Shown here: positions 6,897-37,951 of the stretch, in pieces
Layout of the letters: each line of letters starts with the position of its first letter
Position numbering within the stretch: position 1 is the first letter of the stretch
Source of the DNA: Pseudomonadota bacterium
Lineage (GTDB): Bacteria > Pseudomonadota > Gammaproteobacteria > Steroidobacterales > Steroidobacteraceae
Assembly (NCBI GenBank): GCA_043748075.1
Contig: JAYTNX010000090.1
Location: 2,457-66,456 of the forward strand
Reading direction: 5' to 3'
DNA: 64,000 nt
Translations under genes and position numbers: made by a program
Notes under the pieces: generated by a model
Seen by the model: the letters and a program-made list of their open reading frames with translations, nothing else
Databases searched by the model: none
What the model was told of the DNA's origin: nothing

Positions 6897-7036
6897 GGAC
6901 GAGGACTATATGTCTTGTCGCGCGAACAGCCAGCAGTTCCCGACGACCGGCAGGCAGGGCCCGATGAGCGGTTGGGATGGCCCGACGAGCTGACCGGTTG
7001 CGGCGGTAGCGGACTATCGCGTTACGACGGCTTGCC

Positions 7037-7042
7037 TATAAT
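7037..7042 (+). promoter_or_regulatory. Possible -10 box (TATAAT) only 6 nt upstream of the Irr-like ATG
   Basis: A perfect TATAAT hexamer sits in 'cttgccTATAATgccccgATG'. I found no convincing -35 at 16-18 nt spacing. Confidence 0.3.
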
Positions 7043-7048
7043 GCCCCG

Positions 7049-8566: not shown

Positions 8567-10534
8567 AAGCCGCGCTTCGATCACGCGCGAGAGCGCCGAG
8601 ATCGTCGGATGGTCGAACAGTTCCGTCAGGTCTGTCTGCCCGGGGTAAGCGCGGTCCATTTCCTCGTGGAGCTCGATCAGCTTGAGGGACCCCGCGCCGA
8701 GCTCGAGCAGGTTGTCGTCCGGGCCTATCGCGCGGCCCGGGAACGCCGCGCGGCACAGCGCCGTCAGCCGCGCCTCGATGTCGCTGGCGGCGGGCGCCGA
8801 CGCGGCCACGGGCTCGGTGTGCAGCGCGCGCAGTTCGGCCCGCGCGGCGTCGAACTCGCCGTCGAGAAAGGCCTGTTCGAGCAGGTGTCGCTGGACCTTG
8901 CCACTGGTGGTCTTGGGTATGCGACCGACGGGAACGACCTCGGCGACCTCGAGGCCGGTGTGCTCGTTGATCAGCCGCGACAGCCGCGTCGCCAGCGGGG
9001 CGAAGTCGGCCATCGTGCCCCGGTGCAATGCGAACACGACGAGCTGGTCGGTGTCGGCGCCCGCCGGCCGCACTCCGCTGATCACCACCTTGCCGAGTTC
9101 CATGCCCTCCGTGCGGATCGCGATGCTCTCGAGGTCGTGCGGGTAATAGTTCTGGCCGTTGACGAAGATGATGTCTTTCGCCCGGCCGGTGATGAACAGG
9201 TCGCCGCTCTCCACGAGACCGAGGTCGCCGGTGCGCGTCCAGCCATCGGCGGTGCGCAGCGCGGCGGAAGCCTCGGGGTTGGCGAAATAGCCCGCGGTGA
9301 CGTTGCTGCCGCGGATCTGGATGTGCCCGAACCTTCCCTCGGGCAGCGGCGAGTCATCGTCTGCGGCGATGCGCGTTTCACAGTTCGGAATGGCGCGGCC
9401 GACCGCGACGAGGGTGAGGGCGTCGGTGTCGCTCCGCTGCAGCGCGCGCGCCGTGTCACCGACCTTCATCGAGTGGCGATCGAGCGGCAGCATCCGCAGC
9501 GGGCTCAATGGCTCGGGGAAACTGACGGCCACCGAGGCTTCGGCGAGGCCGTACACCGGGTACATGGCCGCGCGGCGCAGTTGCGCGGGACGCAGGCGAT
9601 CGAGGAACTCATCGCAGAGCGCGGCGCTGATCGGCTCGGCGCCGTTGAAGATGATGCGCACGGCCGAGAGGTCCAGGCCATCGACCGGCCGTTCGCCGAG
9701 CACTTTCAGGTAGTGTCGATAGCCGAAGTTCGGTGAGCACAGCACGGTGGCACGCTTGCGTGATGCCGCCTGCAGCCACAGCAGCGGCCGGCGCACGAAC
9801 AGGTCGGTCGGCATCTGCACGATCTGCATGCCCGCCGTCAGCATGAAGATGTGCAGCCCGATCAGCCCCATGTCGTGGGTCAACGGCATCCACGACAGCG
9901 ACACGTCGCGGTCGTGGAGCCTGCCGGCGCGGATCGCGCCTAGCGTGTTCGCGATCACGTTGCCGTGGGTGAGCACGACGCCCTTGGGGTCGCTGGTCGA
10001 GCCTGAGGAGTACTGGATGAACGCGACGTCCGACGGCGCCGCAACCTGCGCCCGCCCGGCGCGCGAGATGTCGTCCACCTGATCAGCAAGGAACACGCGC
10101 TCGCGCGGCACCGGGAAAGGTTCGCCGGCCGCGCGCGCCGCGCCGGGAGGCGCTTGCGCGGTGAACTGCGTGATGCGCTCGTAGGCCTTGCGGTCGGTGA
10201 CCAGGTATGGGTTGCCGAGCTGGCGCGCAATCCGCAGCAGTTTGCGGCGATGCTCGTCGCTGATGCCCACCGCGACCGGCACGGGCACGATACCGCCGAG
10301 GATCGCGGCCCAGAACGCGTCGACGAACTGCTCGTTGTTGTTGAGGAACAGAATCGCCCTGTCGCCGGCGCGCAGGCCGAGGGTCTGCAGGTGGTGCAGG
10401 ATGCCGAGCGCGCGCGCGTGCAGTTCGACGAACGGCACCACCCGTTCGCGGTCCTCGCCTTCGAGGTAGGTGATGGCGCGGTCGCGGGTGCGCAGCCCGT
10501 CGAACATCCCGGTCAGCGTGGTCGGTTCGCTCAT
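8540..10534 (-). CDS. Fatty-acyl-AMP/CoA ligase (adenylate-forming enzyme) fused to a C-terminal acyl carrier protein domain
   Basis: I trimmed ORF 8540..10540 to ATG 10534. AMP-binding motifs are 'IQYSSGSTSDPKGVVLTHGN' (A3), 'TGDLG' (A7-A8 region) and 'IPKTTSGKVQR' (A10). The C-terminal PP-binding region is '...DDNLLELGAGSLKLIELHEEM...ELFDHPTISALS'. Confidence 0.8.
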   Translation of the reverse strand: MSEPTTLTGMFDGLRTRDRAITYLEGEDRERVVPFVELHARALGILHHLQTLGLRAGDRAILFLNNNEQFVDAFWAAILGGIVPVPVAVGISDEHRRKLLRIARQLGNPYLVTDRKAYERITQFTAQAPPGAARAAGEPFPVPRERVFLADQVDDISRAGRAQVAAPSDVAFIQYSSGSTSDPKGVVLTHGNVIANTLGAIRAGRLHDRDVSLSWMPLTHDMGLIGLHIFMLTAGMQIVQMPTDLFVRRPLLWLQAASRKRATVLCSPNFGYRHYLKVLGERPVDGLDLSAVRIIFNGAEPISAALCDEFLDRLRPAQLRRAAMYPVYGLAEASVAVSFPEPLSPLRMLPLDRHSMKVGDTARALQRSDTDALTLVAVGRAIPNCETRIAADDDSPLPEGRFGHIQIRGSNVTAGYFANPEASAALRTADGWTRTGDLGLVESGDLFITGRAKDIIFVNGQNYYPHDLESIAIRTEGMELGKVVISGVRPAGADTDQLVVFALHRGTMADFAPLATRLSRLINEHTGLEVAEVVPVGRIPKTTSGKVQRHLLEQAFLDGEFDAARAELRALHTEPVAASAPAASDIEARLTALCRAAFPGRAIGPDDNLLELGAGSLKLIELHEEMDRAYPGQTDLTELFDHPTISALSRVIEARLSGPVQRLA

Positions 10535-10548
10535 TCGCACCGTACTTT

Positions 10549-10572
10549 ATCCCATCGTCCATCCCATCGTCG
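10549..10572. repeat. Tandem 12-bp direct repeat (ATCCCATCGTCC ATCCCATCGTCG) in the divergent promoter region
   Basis: Read directly from the sequence. It lies 15 nt from the ligase::ACP ATG (10534) and 80 nt from the GT2 ATG (10652). Confidence 0.8.
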
Positions 10573-10651
10573 CCGGCCGCGGGCGTCCTTGTTACCCGGG
10601 GTGCAATCGCGGACAATCCACTGTGACGACAACGTCCCCCTGGCGCAAAGC

Positions 10652-11392
10652 ATGACCGAATCCGATCCGGGGGCTACCCGCGTGACGCCCGAGATTTCGG
10701 TCGTGGTGCCGGTCTGCAACGAGGCCGAAAATGTCGGTCCGCTGGCGACGGAAATCGCGCTCGCACTCGCCGATCGCGAGTTCGAGATCCTGTTCGTCGA
10801 CGATGGCAGCACCGACGATACGGCTGCCGCGACGCGCGCCATTCGCGAGCGAGGCATCCCGCAATTGCGGCTCCTCCGTCACTCGTTTCGCAGCGGCCAG
10901 AGTGCCGCCGTGTGGTCCGGCGTACGCGAGGCACGCGCACCGTGGATCGCGACGCTCGATGGCGACGGCCAGAACGATCCGGCGGACATCCCGAAACTCG
11001 TGGCCGCGCGCGGCGACGCGTTGCTGGTGATGGGCAACCGCACCAGCCGGCGCGACACCTGGATGCGACGCCTGCAGTCGCGCATTGCCAATGGCGTGCG
11101 GGCTTCGTTGCTGGGCGACGGCACACCGGACACGGGCTGCGGCATCAAGCTGATGCATCGCGAAACCTTCCTGGCGCTGCCGCGGTTCGACCACATGCAC
11201 CGGTTCCTGCCGGCGCTGTTCCAGCGCGCCGGCGCGCGCGTCGTCTCGGTGCCGGTCAATCATCGCCCGCGCCAGCGTGGTCAGTCCAAGTACGGCCTGC
11301 TCGATCGGCTGTGGGTCGGCATCGTCGACATCTTTGGTGTCATGTGGCTGAAGCGCCGCTTCAAGCCCGGCCTCGCGGTGCGCGAGGAATAG
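10652..11392 (+). CDS. GT2 polyprenyl-phosphate sugar synthase (ArnC / DPM1-like)
   Basis: I trimmed ORF 10154..11392 to ATG 10652. GT-A motifs are 'ISVVVPVCNEAENV', 'FVDDGSTDDT' and 'ATLDGDGQNDP' (DXD). Two C-terminal hydrophobic helices are present ('LLDRLWVGIVDIFGVMWL'). Confidence 0.8.
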   Translation: MTESDPGATRVTPEISVVVPVCNEAENVGPLATEIALALADREFEILFVDDGSTDDTAAATRAIRERGIPQLRLLRHSFRSGQSAAVWSGVREARAPWIATLDGDGQNDPADIPKLVAARGDALLVMGNRTSRRDTWMRRLQSRIANGVRASLLGDGTPDTGCGIKLMHRETFLALPRFDHMHRFLPALFQRAGARVVSVPVNHRPRQRGQSKYGLLDRLWVGIVDIFGVMWLKRRFKPGLAVREE

Positions 11393-11420
11393 CCGTGCGC
11401 GAGTACTAGGAGACGCATTC

Positions 11421-11702
11421 ATGGGATCGACGGAAACCACGTTGTGGATCGTGATCGGATTCGCCGGGCAGGCGCTGTTCTCGGCCCGCTTCATCGTGCA
11501 ATGGCTGGCGAGCGAGCGTGCCCGGCGCAGCCTGATCCCGATGGCGTTCTGGTATTTCAGCCTGCTCGGCGGGGCCGTGCTGTTGTCCTACGCGATCCAC
11601 AAGCGCGATCCGGTCTTCATCGTCGGCCAGGCCGCGGGTCTGTTCGTCTACCTTCGCAACCTCTTCCTCATCCGCACCGGCCGGCAGAAGGTCGAGGCCT
11701 GA
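11421..11702 (+). CDS. Small membrane protein, lipid-A-disaccharide synthase N-terminal (LAB_N) domain family
   Basis: 93 aa with three predicted TM helices. 'LWIVIGFAGQALFSARFIVQWLASERARRS' is followed by a second related half, 'FWYFSLLGGAVLLSYAIHKRDPVFIVGQ'. The RBS is AGGAGA, 8 nt upstream. Confidence 0.65.
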   Translation: MGSTETTLWIVIGFAGQALFSARFIVQWLASERARRSLIPMAFWYFSLLGGAVLLSYAIHKRDPVFIVGQAAGLFVYLRNLFLIRTGRQKVEA

Positions 11703-11727
11703 GGGGCCGGGATCCGGGTCGCTGCCG

Positions 11728-13437
11728 ATGAAGGGCGAAGCGCACCGCGAGCATTGGCGCGACCTCGGCTGGATACTGCTCGCCGTGCTGCTGCTGATCG
11801 CGAGCGGTTACGGATTGAGAGACCCCTGGCCCGCCGACGAGCCGCGTTTCGCCGCGCTGGCGCGCGACATGGTGGCGAGCGGCAACTGGCTGTTTCCGCG
11901 AGTCGGCGGCGACCTCTACCAGGACAAGCCGCCGTTGTTCTTCTGGCTGTTGGCGGCGGCTCATGCCGCGATCGGTTCGGTACGCAGCTCGTTCCTGCTG
12001 CCGTCGATGCTGGCCGCGACGGGTACGTTGCTGCTCGTCTATTCGCTCGCGACCCGATTGCACGGCCGGCGTGCCGGTCTCGCGGCGGCGATCCTGCTGG
12101 CCTGCTGCACGCAGTTCGTGCTGACGATGCGCGGCGCGCAGATCGACCCGACGCTGCTGTTCTTCACCACTCTGTCGCTCTGGGGGTTCTGCCGCCACCT
12201 GCTGCTCGGTCCCGACTGGCGGGCGTATCTACTCGGCGGACTGGCGGCCGGCATCGGCGTCATCACCAAGGGCGTCGGCTTCCTGCCGTTGCTGTTGGTG
12301 CCCATCGGGATGGCGATGTCGCGAGGCCGATGGACGCTGGCGGCGATACCCGCGGGCGGTTGGCGATGGTGGCTCGCACCGGTGGGGTTCCTGCTCGCCA
12401 TCGGTGCCTGGCTCGTGCCGATGCTGATCGCGGTCGCGCTCAGCGGGGCACCGGATCTGGTTGCCTATCGCAACGAGATCCTGTTCCAGCAGACCGTGCA
12501 ACGCTACGCGGCCGCGTGGCATCACGTCAGGCCGTGGTGGTACTTCCTCGTCGAGGTCGTCCCGGCCTTGTGGCTGCCGTTGAGCGCGCTGCTGTTCTGG
12601 CTGGTACCACGCTGGCGACGCGACCTCGCAGCACGCCGAGGGGACGTCTGGCTGCCGCTGTTCTGGGTGGCGATCGTGCTGTTGTTCTTCTCGTTGAGCC
12701 CCGGCAAACGCGGCGTCTACATTCTCCCCGCGCTGCCGGCACTGGCGATCGCTGCCGCCGCGCACCTGGACGAACTGCTGATGCGGCGCGGCGTGGCGCG
12801 CCTGAGTCTCGCGCTCGCCGCACTGCTGGCACTCCCGGGCCTGTTGCTGGCGCTGGGGCATCTGGCGGGGCAGCCGAAGGTGGCGGCGCTGCTGGCGGAC
12901 GCCGGGCTGCAGTCGATGCGGCCGGTGCTGGCGTTCGGCTTCGCGGCGCCCCTGCTGTGGCTCGCCGCGGCGCGCTTCGCACCGGTGCTCGCCTGGCCAG
13001 TCGTGCTCGCGGCTCTCGCCAGCTGCTGGGGAGTCGGAGTCGCGCCGCAGATCAACCCGCAGCGTTCGGCTGCGGCGTTCATCAGAGGCGTGCTCGAGAA
13101 GGTGCCGCCGGAGCGCGAACTGGGGCTCGTCGCCTACAAGGAACAGTTCCTGCTCGCCCTGGATCGCGACTCGTTCAACTTCGGCCACAGTCGCTGGCGC
13201 GAGGGCCCGCAGGAGACTTACGACGCGGCCACCTGGCTCGCGGCGGAGCCGGCGGGACGAGTCTTGCTGGTGCCGGAGGCCCTGCTGTCGCCGTGTTTCA
13301 CCGCTGCCGCGCGCAGGGAGGCGGGGCGGAGTTCGCGCGAGACCTGGTGGCTGGTATCGGGTTTGCCCGCCGCGGATTGCGTGGCCAAGGGGCAGCCCGG
13401 ACGGGCAATTCCGTATCCCGCGCACCCGATCGGATGA
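11728..13437 (+). CDS. ArnT/PMT-like GT-C glycosyltransferase (GT39/GT83 type); polytopic membrane protein
   Basis: The N-terminal loop 'RDPWPADEPRFAALARDMVASGNWLFPRVGGDLYQDKPPLFFWLL' is typical of ArnT-like enzymes (D/E-x-D/E in loop 1, YxDKPPL). More than 10 hydrophobic helices follow, then a soluble C-terminal domain. Confidence 0.8.
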   Translation: MKGEAHREHWRDLGWILLAVLLLIASGYGLRDPWPADEPRFAALARDMVASGNWLFPRVGGDLYQDKPPLFFWLLAAAHAAIGSVRSSFLLPSMLAATGTLLLVYSLATRLHGRRAGLAAAILLACCTQFVLTMRGAQIDPTLLFFTTLSLWGFCRHLLLGPDWRAYLLGGLAAGIGVITKGVGFLPLLLVPIGMAMSRGRWTLAAIPAGGWRWWLAPVGFLLAIGAWLVPMLIAVALSGAPDLVAYRNEILFQQTVQRYAAAWHHVRPWWYFLVEVVPALWLPLSALLFWLVPRWRRDLAARRGDVWLPLFWVAIVLLFFSLSPGKRGVYILPALPALAIAAAAHLDELLMRRGVARLSLALAALLALPGLLLALGHLAGQPKVAALLADAGLQSMRPVLAFGFAAPLLWLAAARFAPVLAWPVVLAALASCWGVGVAPQINPQRSAAAFIRGVLEKVPPERELGLVAYKEQFLLALDRDSFNFGHSRWREGPQETYDAATWLAAEPAGRVLLVPEALLSPCFTAAARREAGRSSRETWWLVSGLPAADCVAKGQPGRAIPYPAHPIG

Positions 13438-13444
13438 GCGCGAT

Positions 13445-13464
13445 CTGTCTTTACCAACAGACAG
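13445..13464 (+). terminator. Weak hairpin after the GT39 gene (CTGTCT-N8-AGACAG) followed by a T-rich tract
   Basis: A 6-bp stem with an 8-nt loop, then 'ttagcttgtctttctc'. It lies 8 nt after the stop at 13437 and 20 nt before the next start. Confidence 0.25.
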
Positions 13465-13483
13465 TTAGCTTGTCTTTCTCGAC

Positions 13484-16213
13484 GTGTATGCCACAATCGA
13501 GGCACGCGCCGGTCCTGGCGCGCAGCCTCAGCGGTATCCGGCCCTGATCGACCCCGCCAGCGACTTCAGCGCCTCCGACATCCTGGCTCCCCAGGCGTGG
13601 ACGCCTCCTCGCGCGCAACGCCTGCACACGGGACTGGACGTCACCTGCACCAAGATCGCGGTCGACTTCCAGAACCTCAGCCGCGACAGCGCCGAAGCCG
13701 TCTTGCGCGAGAACCTCGACCTGCTGCGCGACGCCTCCGGTTGCGACGCCGCGCTGGCGATCACCCTCGATCCCGCGGGACTCGTGATGGACTCCGTCAC
13801 GGTGTCCCGTGGCACGTTTGCGCAGTGTCATCCCGAAGCCCTGCGCGGCGACAGTATCGAGGCCTGGGGCTGGCTGCGCACCCGTCTCGACCATCTGCGT
13901 CTCTCCGCGCTGCTCGACACGGCCGCGCCGCGCCGTGACCAGCAGGTCGAGGCGCGACGGCTGGCTGAACTTCACATCGGATCGCTGCTACTGGTGACCT
14001 ACCGCATCGGCGGCGTGCCGGCCGGGTTTCTCGGCCTCGCCAACTCGCTGCCGCGCGGTGCCTGGGACGTCAACCTGCAGCTGTTGCTGAAGCTGATCGG
14101 TACCAGTCTCGCCACCGGCCTCGGCCGGCTGAAGCTCGAGGCCCGCCTCGCCAAGCTCGAGGAGCGTGTCGAGCTGTCGAAAGATGCCGCCAACGACGGC
14201 TTGTGGGACTTCGACGTCGAGCGCAATGAGATGTACTTCTCGCCGCGCTGGCGCGTCATGCTCGGCTATTCCGATTCCGACCTGGACCTCGCGCCGGACT
14301 GGCGCGGGCTCGTGCATCCGGAGGACATGTCGCGAGTCCAGGCGGCCATCCGCGAACACGTCGCCGGCAAGTCGCCGATCTTCGAAAGCATTCACCGGAT
14401 GCGCCATTGCAACGGCGAGTGGCGTTGGGTGCAGAGCCGCGCCAAGGCGCGCCTCGACGCCACGGGCCGCCTGCTGCGCCTGGTCGGCGTCGAGCTCGAT
14501 ATCACTGAACGCAAGCTGTACGAGGATGCGCTGTTCCGCGAGAAGGAGAGCGCGCAGATCACGCTGCAGTCGATCGGCGACGGTGTGATCACGACGGACG
14601 CGAACTCGGTCATCGACTACATCAATCCAGTTGCCGAGCAGCTCACCGGCTGGCGCCTGGAAGACGCGATGGGGCGACCCGTCGATGAAATCTTCCGCAC
14701 GTTCCACGAAGAAACCTGCGAGCCGCTCGAGAACCCGCTGACCCAGTCGGTACGCCGGGTGCGCCCGATCAAATCGGTGCGTCCGATGCTATTGATCCGC
14801 AAGGACGGCAACGAGCTGTATGTGGAGAGCACGGCGGCGCCCATCCGTGACGGCGCCGGCAAGGTGTCGGGCGGCGTACTGGTGTTCCACGACGTCAGCG
14901 AGAGCCGCGAGCTAAATCGCCGACTGTCGTACCAGTCGAGCCACGACCTGCTGACGGGGCTGGTCAATCGTCGCGAATTCGAGAGCCGGCTCGAGCGGGC
15001 GCTGAAGAGCGCCAAGGCGCGCGAGTCGTCCTATGCGCTCTGCTATCTCGACCTCGACCAGTTCAAGATCATCAACGACAGTTGCGGGCACTCGGCGGGC
15101 GACGCGCTGCTCGGCCAGGTTGGCTCGCTGCTGAAGGCGAAGGTGCGCTGGCGTGACACGCTGTCGCGGCTCGGTGGCGACGAGTTCGGCGTGCTGCTAG
15201 AAGCCTGCGCGCTCGACGATGCGCTGCGCATGGCCGAGGCGCTGCGCGAGGCCGTACGCAATTTCCGCTTTACCTGGGAGGACCGCGTGTTCCGGCTCGG
15301 CGCCAGCATCGGCGTGGTGCCGATCACCGCCGACAACGAGGACGTGGCCTCGATCATCTCAGCCGCCGACAGCGCCTGCCGAGCCGCCAAGGAGGCGGGG
15401 CGCAACCGGGTGCACAGCTTCGCGGAGAACGACATCGAGCTGATGCGCCGCCGGCGCGAGATGCAATGGGCCGCGCGGATCAACGCCGCACTGGAGGAGG
15501 GCCGCTTCGAGCTCTACCGCATGACGATCCAGCCGCTGCAGAAGCCCGAGACCGGCGCGCACTACGAACTGCTGCTGCGCATGCGGGACGAGAACGGCAA
15601 GGTGGTGGCGCCCGATAGCTTCATGGCGGCCGCCGAACGCTACGGCATCATGCCGTCGATCGATCGCTGGGTGATCGAGAACGCGCTGCGCTGGCTGGTC
15701 TCCGAGGCCGACGAGCGCGAGAACCTGGCACTGTGCGCGATCAACCTGTCGGGCCAGAGTCTTGGCGATGACAAGTTCCTGCCCTTCGTCATCGAGCAGT
15801 TCCAGCGCACCGGTATCGATGCGGCCAAGATCTGCTTCGAGATCACCGAGACGGCCGCGGTTGCGAACTTCTCGCAGGCGAATCGCTTCATCCAGGCGCT
15901 CAAGGAACTGGGCTGCAAGTTCTCGCTCGACGACTTCGGCACCGGTCTGTCGTCGTTCGGTTACCTGAAGCATTTCCCGGTCGACTTCCTGAAGATCGAT
16001 GGAAGCTTCGTGCGTGAAATCCTGCACGACCCGATCGACCGCGAAATGGTGCGTTCGATCAATGAAATCGGCCACCTGACCGGCAAGCTGACGATCGCGG
16101 AATTCGCCGAGAACGCTGAAATCATCCAGATGCTGCGCAGCCTCGGCGTCGACTATGCCCAGGGCTATGGAATCGCCCAGCCGCAGCGCGTCCTTAAGGC
16201 AGTGAATTCCTGA
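13484..16213 (+). CDS. Multidomain c-di-GMP protein: N-terminal sensor (GAF-like), 2x PAS, GGDEF, EAL
   Basis: GTG start. The PAS region is 'NDGLWDFDVERNEMYFSPRWRVMLGY...'. The GGDEF motif 'RLGGDEFGVLL' has an RxxD I-site ('RWRD') with its Asp 6 residues before the first Gly. EAL-domain motifs are 'ELLLR', 'EITET', 'DDFGTG', 'KIDGSF' and 'QGY'. Confidence 0.85.
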   Translation: MYATIEARAGPGAQPQRYPALIDPASDFSASDILAPQAWTPPRAQRLHTGLDVTCTKIAVDFQNLSRDSAEAVLRENLDLLRDASGCDAALAITLDPAGLVMDSVTVSRGTFAQCHPEALRGDSIEAWGWLRTRLDHLRLSALLDTAAPRRDQQVEARRLAELHIGSLLLVTYRIGGVPAGFLGLANSLPRGAWDVNLQLLLKLIGTSLATGLGRLKLEARLAKLEERVELSKDAANDGLWDFDVERNEMYFSPRWRVMLGYSDSDLDLAPDWRGLVHPEDMSRVQAAIREHVAGKSPIFESIHRMRHCNGEWRWVQSRAKARLDATGRLLRLVGVELDITERKLYEDALFREKESAQITLQSIGDGVITTDANSVIDYINPVAEQLTGWRLEDAMGRPVDEIFRTFHEETCEPLENPLTQSVRRVRPIKSVRPMLLIRKDGNELYVESTAAPIRDGAGKVSGGVLVFHDVSESRELNRRLSYQSSHDLLTGLVNRREFESRLERALKSAKARESSYALCYLDLDQFKIINDSCGHSAGDALLGQVGSLLKAKVRWRDTLSRLGGDEFGVLLEACALDDALRMAEALREAVRNFRFTWEDRVFRLGASIGVVPITADNEDVASIISAADSACRAAKEAGRNRVHSFAENDIELMRRRREMQWAARINAALEEGRFELYRMTIQPLQKPETGAHYELLLRMRDENGKVVAPDSFMAAAERYGIMPSIDRWVIENALRWLVSEADERENLALCAINLSGQSLGDDKFLPFVIEQFQRTGIDAAKICFEITETAAVANFSQANRFIQALKELGCKFSLDDFGTGLSSFGYLKHFPVDFLKIDGSFVREILHDPIDREMVRSINEIGHLTGKLTIAEFAENAEIIQMLRSLGVDYAQGYGIAQPQRVLKAVNS

Positions 16214-29781: not shown

Positions 29782-31890
29782 TCAGGAAACCTTCATGCCC
29801 GGCTGCACGCCGGCGTCCGCCGACAGCAGGAACAGGCCGCCGTCTCCGCCGGCGCTGAGTACCATGCCCTCGGACACCCCGAAGCGCATCTTGCGAGGCT
29901 CGAGGTTCGCGATCACCACGACGAACCGGCCGACCAGCTCTTCAGGCCGGTAGGCCGCACGGATGCCGGAAAACACGTTGCGCGGCTCACCGCCGAGGTC
30001 GAGCGTCAGCTGCAGCAGTTTGTCGGAGCCCGCCACCGCGCTGGCGGCGGACACGCGCGCGATCCGCAGGTCGAGCTTCGCGAAGTCGTCGAGGCGCACC
30101 TTCGGCATCGCACCAACCGGGACCACCAGATCGACCGGTGCTGAGGCAGCCCGGGCCGCGGCCACCGGGGACGTCGTCGCCGCACGGCCAGCCGACGTCG
30201 GGGTCAGCGACGCCACAGGCGACGCCTCAGACGATTTCACGGGCGACTCCGCGGGCGATCCCGCGGGTGCTTCGATCAGGGTCGCGACGATCTTCGGGTC
30301 GAGACGGATCGCCAGCGGCTCGTAGTGCGCAATCGACACCCCGAGCAGTGGCGTCTGAACCGCGTCCCAGCGCTCGATCGGCACGCCGAGGAAGCGCCCG
30401 GCGGCCACTGCCATCGACGGCAACACCGGCGCGAGAAAGGTCAGCAGCGCACGAAACATGTTGATGCCCTGCGTCGCAACTGCGCGGACTTCATCGGCCC
30501 TGGCAGGGTCCTTCGCCAGCGCCCAGGGCTTGTGCAGGTCGACGTACTGGTTGGCCTTGTCGGCGAGCTGCATGATTTCGCGGAGGGCTGCCGAGTACTC
30601 GCGAGCCTCCAGCGCCGACCCGATCGTCGAGGCCGCTGCGCGGAACTCGTCGTACAGCGCTTCGTCGGGCAGGCGGGCGGCCAGCTGCCCGCCGCCGCGC
30701 TCGATGAAGCCCGCGCAGCGACTCGCGATGTTGACCAGCTTGCCCACGACGTCGGAATTGAAACGGGCGGTGAAGTCGTCCAGCGAAAGGTCGATGTCGT
30801 CGATGCCCGAACCGAGTTTGGCAGCGAAATAGTAGCGCAGCGGCTCCGGCGGCAGACGCTCCAGGTAGCGCCGCGCGGTGATGAAGGAGCCGCGCGTCTT
30901 GGACATCTTCTGGCCGTTCACGGTGAGGAAGCCGTGGACGAATACCGCGGTCGGGCGGCGGAAGCCGGCGCCATGCAGCACCGCGGGCCAGAACAGCGTG
31001 TGGAAGTAGCTGATGTCCTTGCCGATGAAATGGTACATCTCGGCCGAGCTGTCCGGCTCGAGCCAGGCGCCCATGTCGAGGCCACGCTTCGCAGCCAGCG
31101 CCTTGAAGCTGCCGAGATAGCCGATCGGCGCATCGAACCAGACGTAGTAGTACTTCCCCGGGGCGTCCGGTACCTCGAACCCAAAGTAGGGTGCGTCGCG
31201 CGAAATGTCCCAATCCTGCAGCCCGGCCTCGAACCACTCGGCGAGTTTGGCCTGCACCGCCGGCTGCAGCGAGCCGCTCTTCAGCCATTCCCGCAGCATC
31301 GGCTCGAAGCGCCCCAGCGAGAAGAACAGGTGTTCGGATTCGCGCCAGACCGGTCGCGTACCACTGACCACCGACAGTGGGTCGATCAGGTCGGCCGGCG
31401 CATAGGTGGCGCCGCAGTTCTCGCAGCTGTCGCCGTACTGATCTGCGGTTCCGCAGCGTGGGCAGGTGCCGCGCACGAAGCGGTCCGGCAGGAACATTGC
31501 GGCCTGCTCGTCGAACGCCTGCCGCACCGAACGTCGCGTGATGAATCCCGCGTCGCGAAGCCGCGCATACATCAGGTCGGTGAAGTACTGCGTCTCGGGC
31601 GTGTGCGTCGAATGGAACTGGTCGTGGCCGATCAGGAAGCCCTGGTAGTCGGCCCGGTGTTCGGCGGCAACGCGTTCGATCAACGCCTCGGGCGTGGTGC
31701 CCTCGGCCTTCGCCTTGATCATGATCGGCGTGCCGTGCGCGTCCTCGGCGCAGACGTATAGGACGTCGTGGCCGCGCATCTTCTGGTAGCGGACCCAGAT
31801 GTCGGTCTGGACCGCTTCGATGATGTGGCCGAAATGCAGCGGCCCGTTGGCATAGGGCAGCGCGCTGGTGACGAGGATCGTTCTGGGCAT
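29782..31890 (-). CDS. metG: Methionine--tRNA ligase with a C-terminal tRNA-binding (Trbp111/EMAP-like) domain
   Basis: HIGH motif is '[12 protein letters not shown]' and KMSKS motif is 'GQKMSKTRG'. The zinc knuckle is '[18 protein letters not shown]'. The C-terminal domain reads 'LDLRIARV...GIRAAY...[22 protein letters not shown]'. Confidence 0.95.
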
Positions 31891-31945: not shown

Positions 31946-33004
31946 TCAGGCGTCGCGGACGGCCTCGAACTTCGCCTTGTTGATGGCCTTCTTGAACGCT
32001 TCCTTGCCGGCCACCTGCTTCGAGTCGAGCAGTGCCTGGATCGCGCTGTCCATCGTGCGCATGCCGAAAGAGCTGCCGGACTGCATCGTAGTCTCCAGCT
32101 GGTCGAGTTTGCCTTGCCGGATCAGGTTCGCGACCGCGGGGGTGTTGACCAGGATCTCGAGCGCCGCAACGCGGCCGCTACCGTCGGCACGCTGCAGCAG
32201 CTGCTGCGAGACCACGCCGCGCAGCGAGGTCGAGAGCATCGTGCGCACGTGCGGCTGCTTGTCCGCCGGGAACACGTTGACGATGCGATCCACGGTCTGC
32301 GCCGCGCCGTTGGTGTGCAGCGTGCCCATCACCAGAATGCCCATCTCGGCGGCGGTCACGGCGATGCTCATGGTCTCGTAGTCGCGCAGCTCGCCGACCA
32401 GGATCACGTCGGGGTCTTCGCGCAGGGCCGAATGCAGCGCGTCGGCGAAGCTCGGGCTGTGCACGCCCACCTCGCGCTGGCTGATGAGACAGTTCTTGCG
32501 CGGATGGATGAACTCGATCGGGTCCTCGATCGTCAGGATATGGCCCTTCACGCGGCGGTTGATGTCATCAATGATAGCCGCCAGAGTGGTGGACTTGCCC
32601 GAGCCTGTCTTGCCGGTGACCAGGATCAGGCCGGTGGCGGCCCGCGACATCTGGCGAATGGCTTGCGGCAGCGCCAGTTCCTCCATCGACAGCGCCTTGG
32701 ACGGGATGGAGCGCATCACCGCGCCCATGCCGTTGAGATGGCGCATCACGTTGACGCGGAAACGGCCTAGTTCGCCCATGGTATAGGCGAAGTCGGCACC
32801 GTCGTGATTCTCGAAGCGAGTGACTGCCGTCTTCGGCATGATCTCCAGCAGCGTGTCGCGCACGAAGTCCATGCCGAGCGGCTCGGGGTCGAGCGGCGTC
32901 AGGTCGCCGTAGACGCGGATACGCGGCGGGTCGCCCGCGAGGAAGTGCAGGTCTGAGCCGCGACGCTCGAGCACGCGGGTCAGGTAGGTGTCGATTCGTG
33001 GCAT
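31946..33004 (-). CDS. PilT-family type IV pilus retraction ATPase, second of a pair (PilU-like position)
   Basis: I trimmed ORF 31946..33112 to ATG 33004. Supporting motifs are 'GSDLHFLAGDPPRIRVYGDL', Walker A 'GKTGSGKSTT', 'EDPIEF', Walker B 'DPDVILVGELRD', His box 'GTLHTNGA', and 'TPAVANLIRQGK'. Confidence 0.85.
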   Translation of the reverse strand: MPRIDTYLTRVLERRGSDLHFLAGDPPRIRVYGDLTPLDPEPLGMDFVRDTLLEIMPKTAVTRFENHDGADFAYTMGELGRFRVNVMRHLNGMGAVMRSIPSKALSMEELALPQAIRQMSRAATGLILVTGKTGSGKSTTLAAIIDDINRRVKGHILTIEDPIEFIHPRKNCLISQREVGVHSPSFADALHSALREDPDVILVGELRDYETMSIAVTAAEMGILVMGTLHTNGAAQTVDRIVNVFPADKQPHVRTMLSTSLRGVVSQQLLQRADGSGRVAALEILVNTPAVANLIRQGKLDQLETTMQSGSSFGMRTMDSAIQALLDSKQVAGKEAFKKAINKAKFEAVRDA

Positions 33005-33020
33005 GCGGGCGGTGCTCGGC

Positions 33021-34115
33021 TCAAGTCGCCGCGGCGTCGAGCTTCGGCAGCAGGCTCGTGTCCGCGATGTATTTCTGGAACAGGCGCTTCTCGGAGGCGT
33101 ACGAAACGGCATCGTCCGCGTCGAGCTCTCGGCTGGCCAGCCCGGCGAGCAGCGCCTGGTCGAGCAGCTGCGATCCGAGGTCCCGGCCGGTCTGCAGCTG
33201 GCTCGGGATCTGGAAGGTCTGATCGGTCTGGATCAGCTTGGCGATCGCGCGCGTCATCACCATCACCTCGACCACGGCCTTGCGGCCGCGGCCGTCGGCG
33301 TTCTTGACCAGCACCTGGGTCAGCACCGCGAGCAGGCTCGAGGCGAGGAAGCTCTTGGTCTGCTCACGCTGCTCGACGGGCAGCGCATCGATCACGCGGT
33401 CGATGGTCTTGGTGGCACTGGTCGTGTGCAGGGTGCCGAGCACGAGGTGGCCGGTCTCGGCCGCGGTCATCGCCATCGAGATGGTCTCGGCGTCGCGCAG
33501 CTCGCCCACCAGAATCACGTCGGGATCCTCGCGCATCGCGGCGCGCACGCCCTCGGCGAACGAGGGGATGTGGGTGCCGAGTTCGCGCTGGATCACCTGG
33601 CTCTGCTTGCTGCGATGTACGAACTCGATCGGGTCCTCGAGGCTGATGATGTTCAGCTTGCGCGTGGAATTCAGCAGGTCGATCATCGCCGCCAGCGTCG
33701 TGGACTTGCCGGTTCCCGTCGAGCCTGTGACCAGCACCATGCCCTGGTGGAAGTCGCAGAGCTTGCGCACGATCGGCGGCAGGTTCAGCGACTCGAGGGA
33801 CGGAATGTCGGACGGGATGGTGCGGAACGTCGCGCCGACGCCAGTCTCCTTGTGGAATACATTGACCCGGAAGCGGCCGCCATCGGCGCTGACATACGAG
33901 AAATCGAGGTCCCTCCCGGTGGCGAAGTGCTCGGCCTGCTTCTTTGAAAGGATCTCGGTCAGGTAGCTTTCGAGTTCGACGTCGCGCAGGTCGCGAAACT
34001 TGATGGGCAGCAGGTCGCCGTTCATCCGCAGCATCGGCGGAACGCCGACGGCGAGGTGCACGTCCGAGCAGCCCTGTTGCATGCCGAGCTTGAGGAAGGC
34101 GTCGATTCGGGCCAA
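33021..34115 (-). CDS. PilT-family type IV pilus retraction ATPase, first of a pair
   Basis: I place the start at TTG 34115, with GGAG 9 nt upstream. The ORF-track start at 34181 is an alternative. Supporting motifs are 'CSDVHLAVGVPPMLRMNGDL', Walker A 'GSTGTGKSTT', 'EDPIEF', 'DPDVILVGELRD' and the His box 'GTLHTTSA'. The AIRNLIRE-equivalent is diverged ('TRAIAKLIQTDQ'). Confidence 0.85.
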   Translation of the reverse strand: MARIDAFLKLGMQQGCSDVHLAVGVPPMLRMNGDLLPIKFRDLRDVELESYLTEILSKKQAEHFATGRDLDFSYVSADGGRFRVNVFHKETGVGATFRTIPSDIPSLESLNLPPIVRKLCDFHQGMVLVTGSTGTGKSTTLAAMIDLLNSTRKLNIISLEDPIEFVHRSKQSQVIQRELGTHIPSFAEGVRAAMREDPDVILVGELRDAETISMAMTAAETGHLVLGTLHTTSATKTIDRVIDALPVEQREQTKSFLASSLLAVLTQVLVKNADGRGRKAVVEVMVMTRAIAKLIQTDQTFQIPSQLQTGRDLGSQLLDQALLAGLASRELDADDAVSYASEKRLFQKYIADTSLLPKLDAAAT

Positions 34116-34196
34116 GGGCGGTCGCTCCGGAGACGGGCGGAAAAGGTTATTGTTCGGCCGCCGGTGAGGTCCGACGAGCATCGGCTGCCGGGAATT

Positions 34197-34208
34197 TGAC
34201 TTAAGTCA
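34197..34208. promoter_or_regulatory. Perfect 12-bp palindrome TGACTTAAGTCA in the kinase-pilT intergenic region
   Basis: Read directly from the sequence. It is AT-rich against the GC-rich background and lies about 80 nt upstream of the PilT-like start. Confidence 0.3.
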
Positions 34209-34229
34209 CGCCTCGGCGCAACCGAGACG
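34209..34229 (-). terminator. Hairpin downstream of the kinase stop (8-bp stem including one G-U pair, 5-nt loop)
   Basis: The minus-strand RNA is cgucucgg-uugcg-ccgaggcg, starting 24 nt after the kinase stop. There is no clear U-tract, so termination is uncertain. Confidence 0.3.
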
Positions 34230-34252
34230 CACCGGCACTCCCGAACGCGCCC

Positions 34253-36709
34253 TCAGCGGAAGGGTTCCAGCGCCGCGCGCAGCTCGTCCATCGTCTGGTA
34301 GCGCGCTGTCTTGTCGACCGCCATGGCCTTGACGATCACGTCCGCCAGGGCCTGGGGCAGTGCCGGATTCACCTCACCCGGCTTGCGGGCCTTGCCTTGC
34401 ACGTGCTGGTACATCACGGCCATGTGGTCGCCGCGGGAATAGGGCGGCACGCCGGTCACCATCTCGTAGAGGATCACTCCGGTGGCGTAGATGTCGGCGC
34501 GCTGGTCGACCTTCTTGCCGAGGATCTGCTCAGGCGCCATGTATTTCGGCGAGCCGATCACGTAGCCGGTCTTGGTCAGCTGCGTGTCGCCCTCGCGCTG
34601 CGTGGCCGCCACGCCGAAGTCGACGATCTTCAGCAGGCCTTCGTCGTCGATCAGCACGTTGGCCGGCTTCAGGTCGCGGTGCACGATCCCTACCTGGTGC
34701 GCGACGGCCATGCCGACGCAGAGGTCGATGCCGAATCCGACGGCGCGCTTCAGGTCCATCGGCTTCTCGCCCACGATCTCCTGGCCTAGCGTGTGGGACT
34801 TGAAGTACTCCATCGAGATGGCGTAGTTGCCCTGGATGTACAGGAAATCGTAGATGCGGATGACGTTGCGGTGCGTGATCTTGCGCGAGAAGCGCAGCTC
34901 GTGGACGAAGCGCTTCATCATCTCCTCGTCCTGGGAGACGTTCGGGTTCAGGAACTTCAGGATCAGGCGGTCGTCGACCACCGTGTCCTCCATCAGCAGC
35001 ACGGTGCCGAATGCGCCCTTGCCGATCTTCTCGAGGAACTTGTAGCGACCCTCGATGAGGTCGCCCGGCTTGAGCATCGAAATGTCGAGCCGCTGCACGC
35101 CCGGCGCATCGGCGGCGCGCACCTGCCGTACGACTTCATCGTCGGGACGGATGGCGGTTCGCGCAGGCTCGACCGGGCGGGGGGCCGGATCGCGGGTGCT
35201 GCTGTCCTGCGAACCGGCGACCTGGCCGGAGGAGCGGTTGCCGCTCGGGTCGGCGACCTCGATCGCGCCGGTGGCGAAGCGGCGCTGAAGTTCCTCGAGC
35301 GCACCCGCCGCAGCCCGCGCCACCGTCGGGTCGCTGGTGGTATTGGCCTGCGACTCGAGCTGGATGCGGATGTGCTCGACGCGCTTATCGTCGGCGAGTC
35401 GCGCCAGGGCATGCACCACCTCGACCTGCACTTCCTTCTCCTTGCGCGACTGCATCACCGCAAGGATCGGGTCGATCGTCCGGTTGTCGCCGAGCTTGCC
35501 GAGCGCGCGCACCACGATCGGCAACGCCTTGGCGGGACCGCCCTGCAGCATCTCGAGCAGGCGCGGCACGGCCTTGCGACTACCGATCTCCGCGAGCGCG
35601 TCGACCGCCCGCTCGCTCACCCACCAGTCGCGGTCGCGGGTGGCATCGAGCAGCTGGTCGACGGCGCGTTCGTCCTTGGTCTGGTTCAGGATCTCGATGG
35701 CCGCCCGTCGAATGTCCTCGTCCGGATCCTTGATGAGCTGCAGCACCGCCTCGACGACTTTCGGCCCGCCGATCTTGCCGAGCGCGTCGGCAGCGCGCGA
35801 GCGCACCCACCAGTCGGCGTCGGCGATCGCCTCGAGCAGGTACTTGACCGATTTGGCGTCGCCGATTTCGTTGAGGACCTCGACTGCCGCGCGTCGCGCG
35901 CTCTCTTCGGGGTCCTTCATGACCTCGATCAGCAGCTTGATGGTGTCGGGATCGTTCGCCTTGATCACGACGTCGATGGCCTTGTTCTGCACGTCGATCT
36001 CGACGTCGCGCAGCAGCGGCACGACCTGGCTGACGTCGATCGGGCCGTCCATGCGCCCGAGTGCCGACAAGGCACCGGATCGGATCAGCTTGCTCGGGTC
36101 CTTCAACTGCGCGAGCAGCGAGGTGCGCACTTCGGGAAGGTTGAAGCGTCCGAGCGTGTTGATGACGTGCAGCCGGGCGATCTGGTCCTTGCTTTGCAGC
36201 CGACCGATGAGCTCGGGTACCGCCGCCGGCGTGGCGATGTCGGAGATGACGCGGAACAGCGCGGCCTTCTCGTTCGGCTGCTGGTTGTGCGCAGCCGTCA
36301 GCAGCTCGCGGACGCTGAAGCGGTCCTTCTGCGCGACGATGACATCCATGATCGCGGACTTCGGGACATCCGGCTTCGACAGCACATCGAGCAGCAGGTG
36401 CGGCGGATAGGCCCGGCTGTTCGTCATGGCCCACTTGATGCCCGAAACCACCCGCGGGCTACCCTCGACCATGGCCTGGATGAAGGTCTGGAAATTCTTC
36501 TGGGTGAGGATGCCGCAGAGCGCCTCGGTGAAGGCTGCGGTGGCTTCCTTGCTGGCGTCCGGCAGGGCGCCGAGGATCGGGTAGATCGCGTCCTCGCCGA
36601 TGTCGACGAGGCGCGCCACGGCCTTGCGGGACGGCGGCGAGTTTGGATCCGCGGTGGCACGGACTTCCGTGATGATGCGGTCCGCCCTAAGGTTCGAAAA
36701 GAATCCCAT
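34253..36709 (-). CDS. Cytoplasmic HEAT-repeat protein fused to a C-terminal Hanks-type Ser/Thr protein kinase (818 aa)
   Basis: I trimmed ORF 34253..37705 to ATG 36709 ('MGFFSNLRADR'). The N-terminal ~500 aa contain HEAT/PBS-lyase-type repeats, for example 'DADWWVRSRAADALGKIGGPKVVEAVLQLIKDPDEDIRRAAIEIL' and 'DRDWWVSERAVDALAEIGSRKAVPRLLEML'. Kinase motifs are 'IGKGAFGTV', 'LILKFL', 'HRDLKPANVL', 'VDFGVA' and 'SPKYMAPE'. I see no TM helix. Confidence 0.85.
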   Translation of the reverse strand: MGFFSNLRADRIITEVRATADPNSPPSRKAVARLVDIGEDAIYPILGALPDASKEATAAFTEALCGILTQKNFQTFIQAMVEGSPRVVSGIKWAMTNSRAYPPHLLLDVLSKPDVPKSAIMDVIVAQKDRFSVRELLTAAHNQQPNEKAALFRVISDIATPAAVPELIGRLQSKDQIARLHVINTLGRFNLPEVRTSLLAQLKDPSKLIRSGALSALGRMDGPIDVSQVVPLLRDVEIDVQNKAIDVVIKANDPDTIKLLIEVMKDPEESARRAAVEVLNEIGDAKSVKYLLEAIADADWWVRSRAADALGKIGGPKVVEAVLQLIKDPDEDIRRAAIEILNQTKDERAVDQLLDATRDRDWWVSERAVDALAEIGSRKAVPRLLEMLQGGPAKALPIVVRALGKLGDNRTIDPILAVMQSRKEKEVQVEVVHALARLADDKRVEHIRIQLESQANTTSDPTVARAAAGALEELQRRFATGAIEVADPSGNRSSGQVAGSQDSSTRDPAPRPVEPARTAIRPDDEVVRQVRAADAPGVQRLDISMLKPGDLIEGRYKFLEKIGKGAFGTVLLMEDTVVDDRLILKFLNPNVSQDEEMMKRFVHELRFSRKITHRNVIRIYDFLYIQGNYAISMEYFKSHTLGQEIVGEKPMDLKRAVGFGIDLCVGMAVAHQVGIVHRDLKPANVLIDDEGLLKIVDFGVAATQREGDTQLTKTGYVIGSPKYMAPEQILGKKVDQRADIYATGVILYEMVTGVPPYSRGDHMAVMYQHVQGKARKPGEVNPALPQALADVIVKAMAVDKTARYQTMDELRAALEPFR

Positions 36710-36853: not shown

Positions 36854-37951
36854 ATGCCCGTCGAGACCTCCGTGGCCGAATTCTCGGCCCTGCTGTCGAG
36901 CTATGTCGACCCTAACCTGCGTCAGTCGCTGGGCGAGGCGGCGGCCGTCGTCGGCATCGAGCGACAGGGCGCCGACCTGGGCGTCACGCTGGAGTTTGGC
37001 TTCCCGACTCTCGGCTACGAGTCCGAGGTGTCCGCCGCGCTTCGGGCGCACCTGGCAGCGGCTGGGCACGACGTGCCGGTCGTGGCCCGACTGCGTCCAA
37101 AGATTGCGGCGCACGCCGTGCAGCGCGGCCTCGCCCCTTTGGCGGGCATCCGTAACGTGGTGGCGGTTGCGTCGGGCAAGGGTGGCGTCGGCAAGTCGAC
37201 CGTCGCCGCGAATCTCGCGCTGGCCTGGGCCGCGCAGGGCGCGCGGGTGGGGTTGCTCGATGCCGACATCTACGGCCCCAGCCAGCCGATCATGCTCGGG
37301 CTCGCTGGCGAGCGGCCAGGCAGCATCGACGGCAAGCGGCTGCGACCGCTGGTTGCCCACGGGCTGGTCGCGATGTCGATCGGCTTCCTGGTCGACCCCG
37401 AGCAGCCGATGGTCTGGCGCGGTCCGATGGTCACCTCGGCGCTGAACCAGCTGCTGGCCGACACCGAGTGGGGCGAGCTCGACTACCTGGTCGTGGACAT
37501 GCCTCCGGGCACCGGCGACATCCAGCTGACGCTCTCGCAGCGCGTGCCGGTCGCTGGAGCGGTGATCGTCACGACGCCGCAGGACATCGCGCTCGCCGAT
37601 GCGCGCAAGGGCCTGCGGATGTTCGAGAAGGTCAACGTTCCGGTGCTCGGCATCGTCGAGAACATGAGCGTTCACGTGTGTGCGAATTGCGGCCATGTCG
37701 AGCATGTGTTCGGCAGCGGCGGCGGCGCGAAGATGGCGACGCAGTACGGGGTGCAGCTGCTGGGCGAGCTGCCGCTGGATGTGCGCATCCGCGAAGAGGC
37801 CGATGGTGGCCGCCCCACCGTGGTGGCCGCGCCCGGCACGCCGCGCGCTGCAGCCTACTTGCGCATGGCACGGCGTACCGCGGGCGAACTCGCGCGCCGT
37901 TCCCGCGACCGCGCCGGGATGTTCCCCAAGATCGTGATCGAGGAATCATGA
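36854..37951 (+). CDS. apbC: Fe-S cluster carrier ATPase ApbC/Mrp
   Basis: This is the C-terminal part of ORF 34793..37951, starting at ATG 36854. Supporting motifs are '[20 protein letters not shown]', '[10 protein letters not shown]' and 'CANCGH'. Confidence 0.92.

Follow-up and report, generated by a model that had tools for sequence, protein, structure and literature searches.

Results

A HEAT::kinase gene and two PilT-family ATPase genes lie between apbC and metG

A 64,000-nucleotide stretch of a Steroidobacteraceae genome (assembly GCA_043748075.1, contig JAYTNX010000090.1, positions 2,457 to 66,456 of the forward strand), referred to here as the window, carries between apbC and metG a trio of open reading frames (ORFs), all on the minus strand. 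They encode a HEAT-repeat solenoid fused to a Hanks-type Ser/Thr kinase (HEAT::kinase) and two PilT-family ATPases, which we name A and B. The junction is built as follows:

36854..37951, plus strand: apbC/mrp, the divergent upstream flank (Pfam ParA/NUBPL, E 9e-101)
34253..36709, minus strand: HEAT-solenoid::Hanks-type Ser/Thr kinase, 818 aa, soluble, with a C-terminal kinase domain (Pfam HEAT_2 and Pkinase)
34116..34252, minus strand: spacer between the kinase and ATPase A, 137 nt, with a hairpin without T-run and a degenerate motif copy at about 34130-34224
33021..34115, minus strand: PilT-family ATPase A ('clade A'), 364 aa, TTG start (TIGR01420)
31946..33004, minus strand: PilT-family ATPase B ('clade B'), 352 aa (TIGR01420)
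29782..31890, minus strand: metG, the downstream flank, 55 nt past ATPase B (Pfam tRNA-synt_1g, E 1.1e-142)

The first-pass annotation of this stretch had placed three same-strand genes, a kinase and two PilT-like ATPases, between apbC and metG. The ORFs and profile searches confirm this, as the kinase passes the Pfam cut-offs for Pkinase and HEAT_2/HEAT_PBS and both ATPases pass that of TIGR01420. The end coordinate that had been given for the element, 36709, is a real position, namely the kinase start, whereas the ORF that reaches 37705 owes its extra length upstream to an artefact. The direct, divergent neighbourhood of mrp and metG in E. coli K-12 had likewise been pointed out, and it holds, the two genes lying 131 bp apart. 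The remaining neighbourhood is intact around the trio: beyond apbC and metG the window has dcd, an rnfB-like gene and nth.

The gene order is kept in close and distant relatives

Related loci were surveyed by tblastn, counting those with at least 1.3 kb (for A) or at least 2.5 kb (for A and B) downstream of the kinase. A clade-A gene comes next after the kinase in 57/57 loci of the first class, and the full order of kinase, A and B is found in 49/49 of the second. As a negative control we reused 78 loci centred on generic kinases (1.13 Mb); two of these hold any PilT-like gene, adjacent to the kinase in neither case. The control loci are what remained of a profile scan of genome contigs with a full-length kinase alignment (its patterns coming from the kinase domain), in which the true relatives among the matches listed were L004 and the 2.7-kb L005. 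Scanning metagenome contigs with a HEAT-only alignment returned close relatives only, with 61-94% identity, which are suited to counting and are not independent evidence.

Named close homologues of the kinase belong to Steroidobacteraceae, and a 133-kb metagenomic contig that shares the gene order of the window encodes an identical kinase. The kinase is adjoined by apbC in nearly all Steroidobacteraceae-type loci, and the whole layout of divergent apbC followed by kinase, A, B and metG also holds at kinase identities of only 56-76% and throughout 80 metagenomic loci. Distant relatives were reached by profile searches and then by single-locus look-ups, with ±10 kb around each match taken as context. 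All eight distant loci (8/8; kinase 33-43% identical) keep the order of kinase, A and B, and their flanking genes are all different:

L165: metagenome, order kept
L166: metagenome, order kept
L169: Inmirania thermothiophila, order kept
L170: Candidatus Methylomirabilis, order kept
L171: NCBI assembly, order kept
L173: metagenome, order kept
L174: Kaarinaea lacus, order kept
L175: metagenome, order kept

Here the HEAT::kinase is followed by a PilT-like gene of 363-378 aa and then by a second one of 353-369 aa. At most 20 nt lie between the kinase and A, and the genes may overlap by up to 13 nt: overlaps are seen in L166, L169 and L174, and in L170, L173 and L175 the genes abut directly. The module accordingly spans Steroidobacteraceae, other Gammaproteobacteria (Inmirania, Kaarinaea) and Methylomirabilota, and it probably also occurs in Tectomicrobia, to go by the name of a protein record.

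Because the arrangement recurs in all related loci that are long enough and in eight distant lineages with unrelated flanks, the adjacency of kinase and ATPases is not due to chance. On the evidence of gene order, a functional coupling of the kinase and the ATPases is well supported. Among the loci surveyed we did not see relatives commonly carrying the kinase at PilT-free loci; a HEAT::kinase directly upstream of a PilT-like pair, first noticed at this single locus, is the rule. The first-pass annotation had cautioned that the link rested on neighbourhood only. The eight distant contexts take the case beyond that caution, while its doubt about co-transcription turns out to be founded in this lineage.

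A different arrangement was observed in a metagenome-assembled genome of Acidobacteriota (L064, 8043-18797), where the gene for a 427-aa PilT-like ATPase (13893-15176) is enclosed by three Hanks kinases with N-terminal kinase domains and PD40, TPR or WD40 tails. Kinases and PilT may have become associated here independently, or by chance in a kinase-rich genome.

The kinase joins a HEAT solenoid to a PknB-like catalytic domain

The protein qualifies both as a HEAT-repeat alpha-solenoid and as a Hanks-type Ser/Thr kinase. Its parts are the following:

35273..36709, minus strand: HEAT/alpha-solenoid region, residues 1-479, with a repeated DWWVR-x-RA-x-DAL signature (AlphaFold2 model)
35099..35269, minus strand: disordered Ser/Thr/Pro-rich linker, residues 481-537, its sequence including GNRSSGQVAGSQDSSTRDPAPRP (AlphaFold2 confidence)
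34289..35044, minus strand: protein kinase catalytic domain, residues 556-807 (PF00069, E 8e-48; Foldseek match to PknB)

HEAT_2 matches over seven stretches (252.5 bits, E 2.4e-76), HEAT_PBS and HEAT are likewise above their Pfam cut-offs, and Pkinase scores 163.5 bits against a cut-off of 31.7. The Gly-rich loop GKGAFG and the HRDLKPAN, DFG and APE motifs are readable in the kinase sequence. In two family alignments of 30-36 homologues, residues K585 (the lysine of VAIK), H677-R678-D679, N684, D697-F698-G699 and P726-E727 are invariant, as are D299-W300-W301 and D361-W362-W363 of the solenoid. An AlphaFold2 model built from 30 homologues (mean predicted local distance difference test score, pLDDT, 82.9) has unbroken helical hairpins from H2 to H479, about 29 helices in all, at a pLDDT of about 85-94. 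It drops below 50 over residues 481-529 and 531-537 of the linker, and the activation loop of the kinase domain is of low confidence. PknB and Stk1 are the nearest solved folds to the kinase domain, with Foldseek TM-scores to PknB of about 0.84-0.90 (target-normalised) at 33% identity. No membrane segment was found in the kinase. The linker may be a site of autophosphorylation or of FHA docking.

ATPases A and B form two clades outside canonical PilT

Both ATPases score well in the PilT/PilU family TIGR01420 (A 417.2 bits, B 433.4 bits, cut-off 319.1), aligning to profile positions 2-341 of 343, and for both the best match in the Protein Data Bank is P. aeruginosa PilT 3JVV (A E 3e-95, B E 3.7e-96). 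Compared with solved structures, A reaches 322 bits to PilT versus 242 to PilU 9N32, and B 326 versus 272, so that we rejected the identification of either protein as PilU. Within the window A and B are 43% identical. A neighbour-joining tree was computed from an alignment of A and B of 11 loci with P. aeruginosa PilT (PaPilT) and Geobacter PilT (GmPilT) as the only canonical references, both rebuilt from printed structure-search alignments. In this tree A and B are two clades with congruent internal branching, and both fall outside PaPilT/GmPilT, with B the nearer. Mean identities are 67% among A proteins, 63% among B proteins, 45% between A and B, 47% between A and PaPilT and 50% between B and PaPilT; individual clade members are 46-53% identical to PaPilT (clade A 46-49%). 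The two clades with their congruent branching imply that the pair arose by an old duplication and was inherited together with the kinase.

All nucleoside triphosphatase (NTPase) boxes are intact in A, namely Walker A GSTGTGKSTT, the Asp box EDPIEF, the catalytic QRE, Walker B DPDVILVGELRD and the His box ETGHLVLGTLHT. ATPase B keeps Walker A, the Asp box, the catalytic Glu, Walker B and the second histidine of the His box, and its first His-box histidine is replaced (AAEMGILV, EMGILVMGTLHT). This change from ETGH to E[MT]GI is shared by 11/11 aligned clade-B members and by every B-type His box among 55 sequences counted. The two paralogues co-evolve and are apparently active. The AIRNLIRE motif reads AIAKLIQT in A and AVANLIRQ in B of the window, and AIAKLIQ[ST] or AIAHLL across clade A and A[VAS][AS]NLIR[QE] across clade B. 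Clade A further carries a conserved C-terminal tail (FQKY-I-ADTSLLPK in the window; consensus [DE][KR][KR]xFQ[KR][YF]V[TS]D[TP]xx[LM]PK), which was not seen in clade B, nor in the stretches available for the two PilT references. The hydroxyl cluster of this tail may be a docking or phospho-acceptor site.

Neither protein has a canonical AIRNLIRE, and neither groups with the two PilT references or reaches orthologue-level identity to them. Judged from their sequences, A and B are thus members of the PilT/PilU family yet not canonical PilT or PilU. Of the earlier description of two PilT-like hexameric ATPases, the family assignment stands, and what replaces a canonical PilT/PilU pair is two separate paralogue clades.

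The long ORF of ATPase A runs 34181..33021, and the start that fits its orthologues is the TTG at 34115, which gives the N-terminus MARIDAFL. A TTG start, sometimes GTG, is used for ATPase A in nearly all Steroidobacteraceae-type loci (window 34113-34115, L001-L004, L085-L162), and the start is ATG in the distant lineages. The TTG and GTG starts are a hint of low or regulated translation initiation of ATPase A.

A conserved motif precedes ATPase A

The 137-nt spacer with a hairpin that had been noted between the kinase and the first ATPase is real; the hairpin lacks a T-run, and the terminator scan did not report it. Spacers between the kinase and A measure 100-260 nt in Steroidobacteraceae-type loci and contain a motif of about 75 nt whose primary sequence is strongly conserved, CGTGCGTTACGTCAAATTTCC-N8-CAAGCTGTTGATCC-(short GC hairpin)-[TA]AAACA (L003, L087-L160), with the core GTGCGTTACGTCAAATTT ... 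TTGATCC ... GGGC[TA]AAACA. In each of 29 relatives the 18-mer GTGCGTTACGTCAAATTT is present a single time, in every case shortly before ATPase A. The window has a degenerate copy, with 4/18 mismatches in a manual alignment, and a search allowing at most 3 mismatches found no match there. In L126 a gene for a 395-aa multi-pass membrane protein (5881-7068, minus strand) lies on the opposite strand between the kinase and A, with the 18-mer still just upstream of A, so that in this relative the ATPases must have transcription of their own. Several relatives have spacer sequences that, read by eye, resemble intrinsic terminators ahead of the motif.

The motif is probably a promoter or operator of the ATPase pair. 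Several other identities were tried and set aside. A structured RNA in the spacer matched no Rfam family and gave no consensus pairs with RNAalifold, which favours a motif acting at the DNA level; sigma-54, sigma-28, CRP/FNR-type and sigma-70 readings, made by eye, fitted all sequences in no case; and an intrinsic terminator after the window kinase was unsupported by the scan. In the distant lineages, genes that overlap or abut are, to go by their spacing, almost certainly co-transcribed.

The sole sigma-70-like match of the region, TCGACA-18-GAGAAT at 36880-36909 (minus strand), falls inside the apbC 5' end. It is oriented towards the kinase, whose start it precedes by about 170 nt, and in this divergent region it is a candidate for the promoter of the kinase.

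The insertion is old

The trio has a GC content of 0.62-0.69, like the adjoining genes. The only repeats are those given by A/B paralogy (spacing 1111 nt) and by the HEAT repeats (spacing 186 nt), and at the trio we found no flanking repeats, integrase or nearby tRNA; the only tRNA of the window is 24 kb off. A recently acquired or mobile island was rejected on these grounds and because the same junction is occupied across the family. By composition and gene order, the insertion into the apbC-metG junction is real but old, and vertically inherited within the family. The first-pass annotation had seen a discrete module dropped into a conserved locus, and the discrete module at a conserved junction holds, whereas a recent drop-in does not agree with the lack of GC anomaly, repeats and tRNA.

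Distant relatives add phosphatase, FHA and cyclic-nucleotide genes

The distant loci carry additional signalling genes around the same core, so that in most lineages the unit is accompanied by PP2C, FHA and cyclic-nucleotide enzymes. A PP2C phosphatase gene directly follows B in L165, L166 and L175, and in L173 its place is taken by a 704-aa HD-GYP (HD_5)::PP2C fusion (12642-14756), whose start and the stop of ATPase B overlap. This fusion is a Rosetta-stone link, within the module, of cyclic-dinucleotide hydrolysis to phospho-Ser/Thr removal. Stand-alone FHA proteins are encoded in L169, L171, L173 and L174, and FHA-GAF-HD-GYP, FHA-EAL or FHA-GAF-guanylate cyclase proteins in L165, L166, L169, L170, L171 and L175. 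Phospho-threonine circuits of bacteria are as a rule made up of kinase, PP2C and FHA proteins, and the set is found in L165, L166, L169, L171, L173, L174 and L175 and not in the window. The fusion of FHA to cyclic-nucleotide enzymes ties this circuit to second-messenger signalling.

Directly upstream of the kinase, several loci encode a protein of about 160 aa that is conserved at 42-60% identity across lineages and resembles DUF6812 only below threshold:

L165 7369-7902: by sequence comparison
L166 4346-4879: by sequence comparison
L169 8515-8994: by sequence comparison
L170 7513-7974: by sequence comparison
L005 51-497: by sequence comparison
L174 3543-4022: probable, 159 aa, by size and position only, with a weak DUF6812 match
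L175 7469-7963: probable, 164 aa, by size and position only

L171, L173 and every Steroidobacteraceae-type locus, the window among them, lack it. In a tblastn search with the relatives' proteins, no PP2C, FHA or small-protein partner was found anywhere in the 64-kb window; the only exception was an unrelated PAS-GGDEF-EAL gene, matched through its generic EAL domain. Since no accessory genes were found in this search, we regard the Steroidobacteraceae version as a reduced core. The relatives' accessory genes point to a putative FHA/PP2C/cyclic-nucleotide signalling circuit that is invisible in the window alone.

Among the window ORFs scanned, the sole cyclic-di-GMP enzyme is a 909-aa PAS-PAS-GGDEF-EAL protein (13484-16213, plus strand), which is not linked to the trio.

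Type IV pilus genes elsewhere in the window

About 25 kb from the trio the window holds a type IVa minor-pilin/tip-adhesin cluster:

224-4126, minus strand: PilY1-like protein, 1300 aa
4589-5797, minus strand: PilW
6261-6896, minus strand: GspH/FimU-like pilin

The FimU-like, PilW and PilY1 genes indicate that the organism has type IVa pilus (T4aP) machinery. The sole pilus hint near a module is a faint T2SSG-like ORF, 4 kb away, in L165.

Between this cluster and the trio, genes for a lipid A acyltransferase-like protein (7643-8566), an AMP-binding and PP-binding protein resembling non-ribosomal peptide synthetases (8540-10540, minus strand) and a PMT_2 glycosyltransferase (11728-13437) are grouped at 7643-13437, and may constitute an envelope-lipid modification cluster.

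Discussion

What could a HEAT-scaffolded kinase control next to two PilT paralogues? We propose that the trio is the reduced core of a cytoplasmic signalling-and-motor module in which the kinase sets the PilT-paralogue pair, with type IV pilus (T4P) retraction or surface behaviour as the likeliest output; in our judgement this proposal stands at about an even chance of being right. The N-terminal HEAT solenoid would be a docking scaffold that binds the ATPase hexamers or their partners, and Ser/Thr phosphorylation by the kinase would set ATPase activity or engagement, the kinase linker and the clade-A tail being candidate sites. In the fuller modules, PP2C would reverse the phosphorylation and FHA proteins would read it, and an FHA-fused HD-GYP, EAL or guanylate cyclase could couple phosphorylation to cyclic di-GMP (c-di-GMP) or other cyclic nucleotides (cNMP). 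The output may most likely be T4P retraction dynamics or surface behaviour, through accessory motors working alongside a canonical PilT encoded elsewhere. The direction of control, the physical interaction, the phosphorylation target and the pilus output are what we infer from family membership and gene context. More broadly, and tentatively, at somewhat below an even chance, the loci may represent a widespread unrecognised module, a heteromeric PilT-paralogue pair hard-wired to a HEAT-scaffolded kinase, whose full form with PP2C, FHA and c-di-GMP/cNMP enzymes would be a phospho-threonine/second-messenger switch for retraction or surface sensing.

Several observations weigh against the proposal. 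The 80 metagenomic loci come mostly from one clade that shares the apbC and metG flanks, so that the independent evidence consists of the eight distant loci. In Steroidobacteraceae the 100-260-nt spacer with its conserved motif and the interposed gene of L126 suggest that the ATPases are probably transcribed on their own, which makes co-transcription with the kinase doubtful. Accessory partners are lacking from the window, as described above. AIRNLIRE, which is needed for PilT function in vivo, is non-canonical in both ATPases, and one His-box histidine is missing from clade B. Finally, no T4P structural gene lies in or beside the module at any of about 60 loci examined, and for this reason the pilus output rests on family membership and on a precedent in M. 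xanthus, where deletion of MXAN_6706, a member of the adjacent extra-PilT pair MXAN_6705/MXAN_6706, causes a partial S-motility defect (PMC13584747).

The main alternative is that control runs in the reverse direction, with the A/B pair sensing pilus load or nucleotide state and activating the kinase, FHA-fused enzymes reading the phospho-threonines and a second-messenger change as the output. The commonest accessory genes, FHA fused to cyclic-nucleotide enzymes together with the HD-GYP::PP2C fusion, agree with such a flow of information, and the long S/T-rich kinase linker that is predicted to be disordered would suit FHA docking. We also count in its favour the title of a preprint that proposes PilT within a P. 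aeruginosa surface-sensing system (PMC10187167) and the FHA-regulated diguanylate cyclase DgcB of Bdellovibrio (PMC6733907). However, neither the window nor any Steroidobacteraceae-type locus has an FHA or cyclic-nucleotide partner beside the trio, and the core persists without a neighbouring partner; we consider the reversed direction unlikely. Nor need the output be a pilus at all: the PilT-like pair could have been recruited to a process apart from type IV pili, such as another envelope machine or a purely regulatory ATPase function, under control of the kinase. The lack, in all of these loci, of a pilus gene linked to the module would fit this, as would the divergent AIRNLIRE, the clade-A C-terminal tail, the altered clade-B His box and the placement in clades of their own. 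Yet both ATPases lie well above the PilT/PilU cut-off, the solved proteins closest to them are bona fide PilTs and the genome encodes T4aP parts. We know of no established non-pilus role for the PilT/PilU subfamily to which A and B belong, and a role away from the pilus seems to us improbable.

Two simpler explanations fare worse. An adjacent pair of PilT-family genes recalls pseudomonad pilT-pilU, and the 137-nt gap with its probable separate promoter would fit two independent units, so that the trio might be read as an ordinary pilT-pilU operon beside an unrelated kinase by chance. This is very unlikely in view of an adjacency that is kept across phyla and in eight contexts in which stop and start codons overlap or abut, and of the ATPases themselves, which are both closer to PilT than to PilU 9N32 and both outside the PaPilT/GmPilT branch. 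An anti-phage defence or conflict system like PD-T4-6, MADS or BREX PglW is scarcely credible. The PADLOC models for PD-T4-6, mad6 and PglW do match the kinase domain (E down to 1.6e-79), with weak P-loop matches of mad8/mad3 to the ATPases, but the matches span only the generic kinase (residues about 545-816) or the P-loop. NCBIfam MAD6 and PglW stay far below their cut-offs, and partner genes are absent. Vertical conservation at a housekeeping junction across the family, with none of the marks of mobility listed above, also speaks against defence, as do accessory genes that encode signalling proteins and not nucleases or methylases. With neither a full-length match nor partner genes, we rejected the assignment to a defence system.

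How does the proposed kinase-controlled motor pair compare with known systems? The ATPases share with PilT/PilU (3JVV, Geobacter 6OJX, 9N32) the TIGR01420 match, length class, Walker A and B, Asp box, catalytic Glu, second His-box histidine and the occurrence as an adjacent paralogue pair, and they differ in forming separate clades, in the altered AIRNLIRE, the clade-B His box and the clade-A tail, and in being linked to a kinase instead of pilus genes. In the H1 type VI secretion system (H1-T6SS) of P. aeruginosa, the Hanks kinase PpkA, the PP2C phosphatase PppA and Fha1 are encoded with the ATPase of a nanomachine that they control post-translationally. The fuller modules resemble this set, but PpkA sits in the membrane as a receptor and has its kinase domain at the N-terminus, whereas the present kinase is soluble with an N-terminal HEAT region and a C-terminal kinase domain; the ATPase there is ClpV and here is PilT-like, and the window has only the kinase and the ATPases. 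M. tuberculosis PknB-GarA (6I2P) offers the closest kinase-domain fold, and module relatives likewise carry FHA proteins. In contrast to PknB, our kinase has a cytoplasmic HEAT solenoid and no PASTA or transmembrane region (NCBIfam PknB_PASTA_kin 272 bits versus a cut-off of 450). In Xanthomonas, FimX-PilZ-PilB provides c-di-GMP control of a pilus ATPase. With this system and with DgcB (PMC6733907), the relatives have in common FHA fused to cyclic-nucleotide enzymes and a meeting of second-messenger control with pilus motor ATPases; the difference is that FHA-GAF-HD-GYP, FHA-EAL and FHA-GAF-guanylate cyclase here accompany retraction-type and not extension ATPases, and none is in the window. 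The M. xanthus pair, likened by description and not by sequence, is also an adjacent, lineage-conserved extra PilT pair with all four NTPase boxes (PMC13584747), and differs in that 'kinase', as a search term in that paper, appears only in its reference list.

The first-pass annotation had stated that, to its knowledge, an association of such a kinase with PilT was undescribed. Our full-text literature searches, combining PilT with HEAT, kinase, FHA or HD-GYP and covering PilT paralogues as well as Steroidobacter and pili, also found no description of a kinase-PilT module, which looks to be real and undescribed. All of its parts come from known families, and the H1-T6SS set of PpkA, PppA and Fha1 is a precedent for phospho-threonine control of a nanomachine.

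In conclusion, the conserved unit defines two new PilT subfamilies with diagnostic features, together with a soluble bacterial kinase family whose N-terminal part is a HEAT solenoid. Additional PilT paralogues of unclear role are found in many bacteria, and little is known on the post-translational regulation of retraction motors. By tying a specific PilT-paralogue pair to a Ser/Thr kinase, and in fuller forms to a phosphatase, FHA proteins and cyclic-nucleotide enzymes, the unit offers a concrete and testable circuit, and with at least two cultured carriers, Inmirania thermothiophila and Kaarinaea lacus, experiments are feasible. If it is true that the module is widespread and works in this way, 'orphan' PilT paralogues would thereby gain a function.

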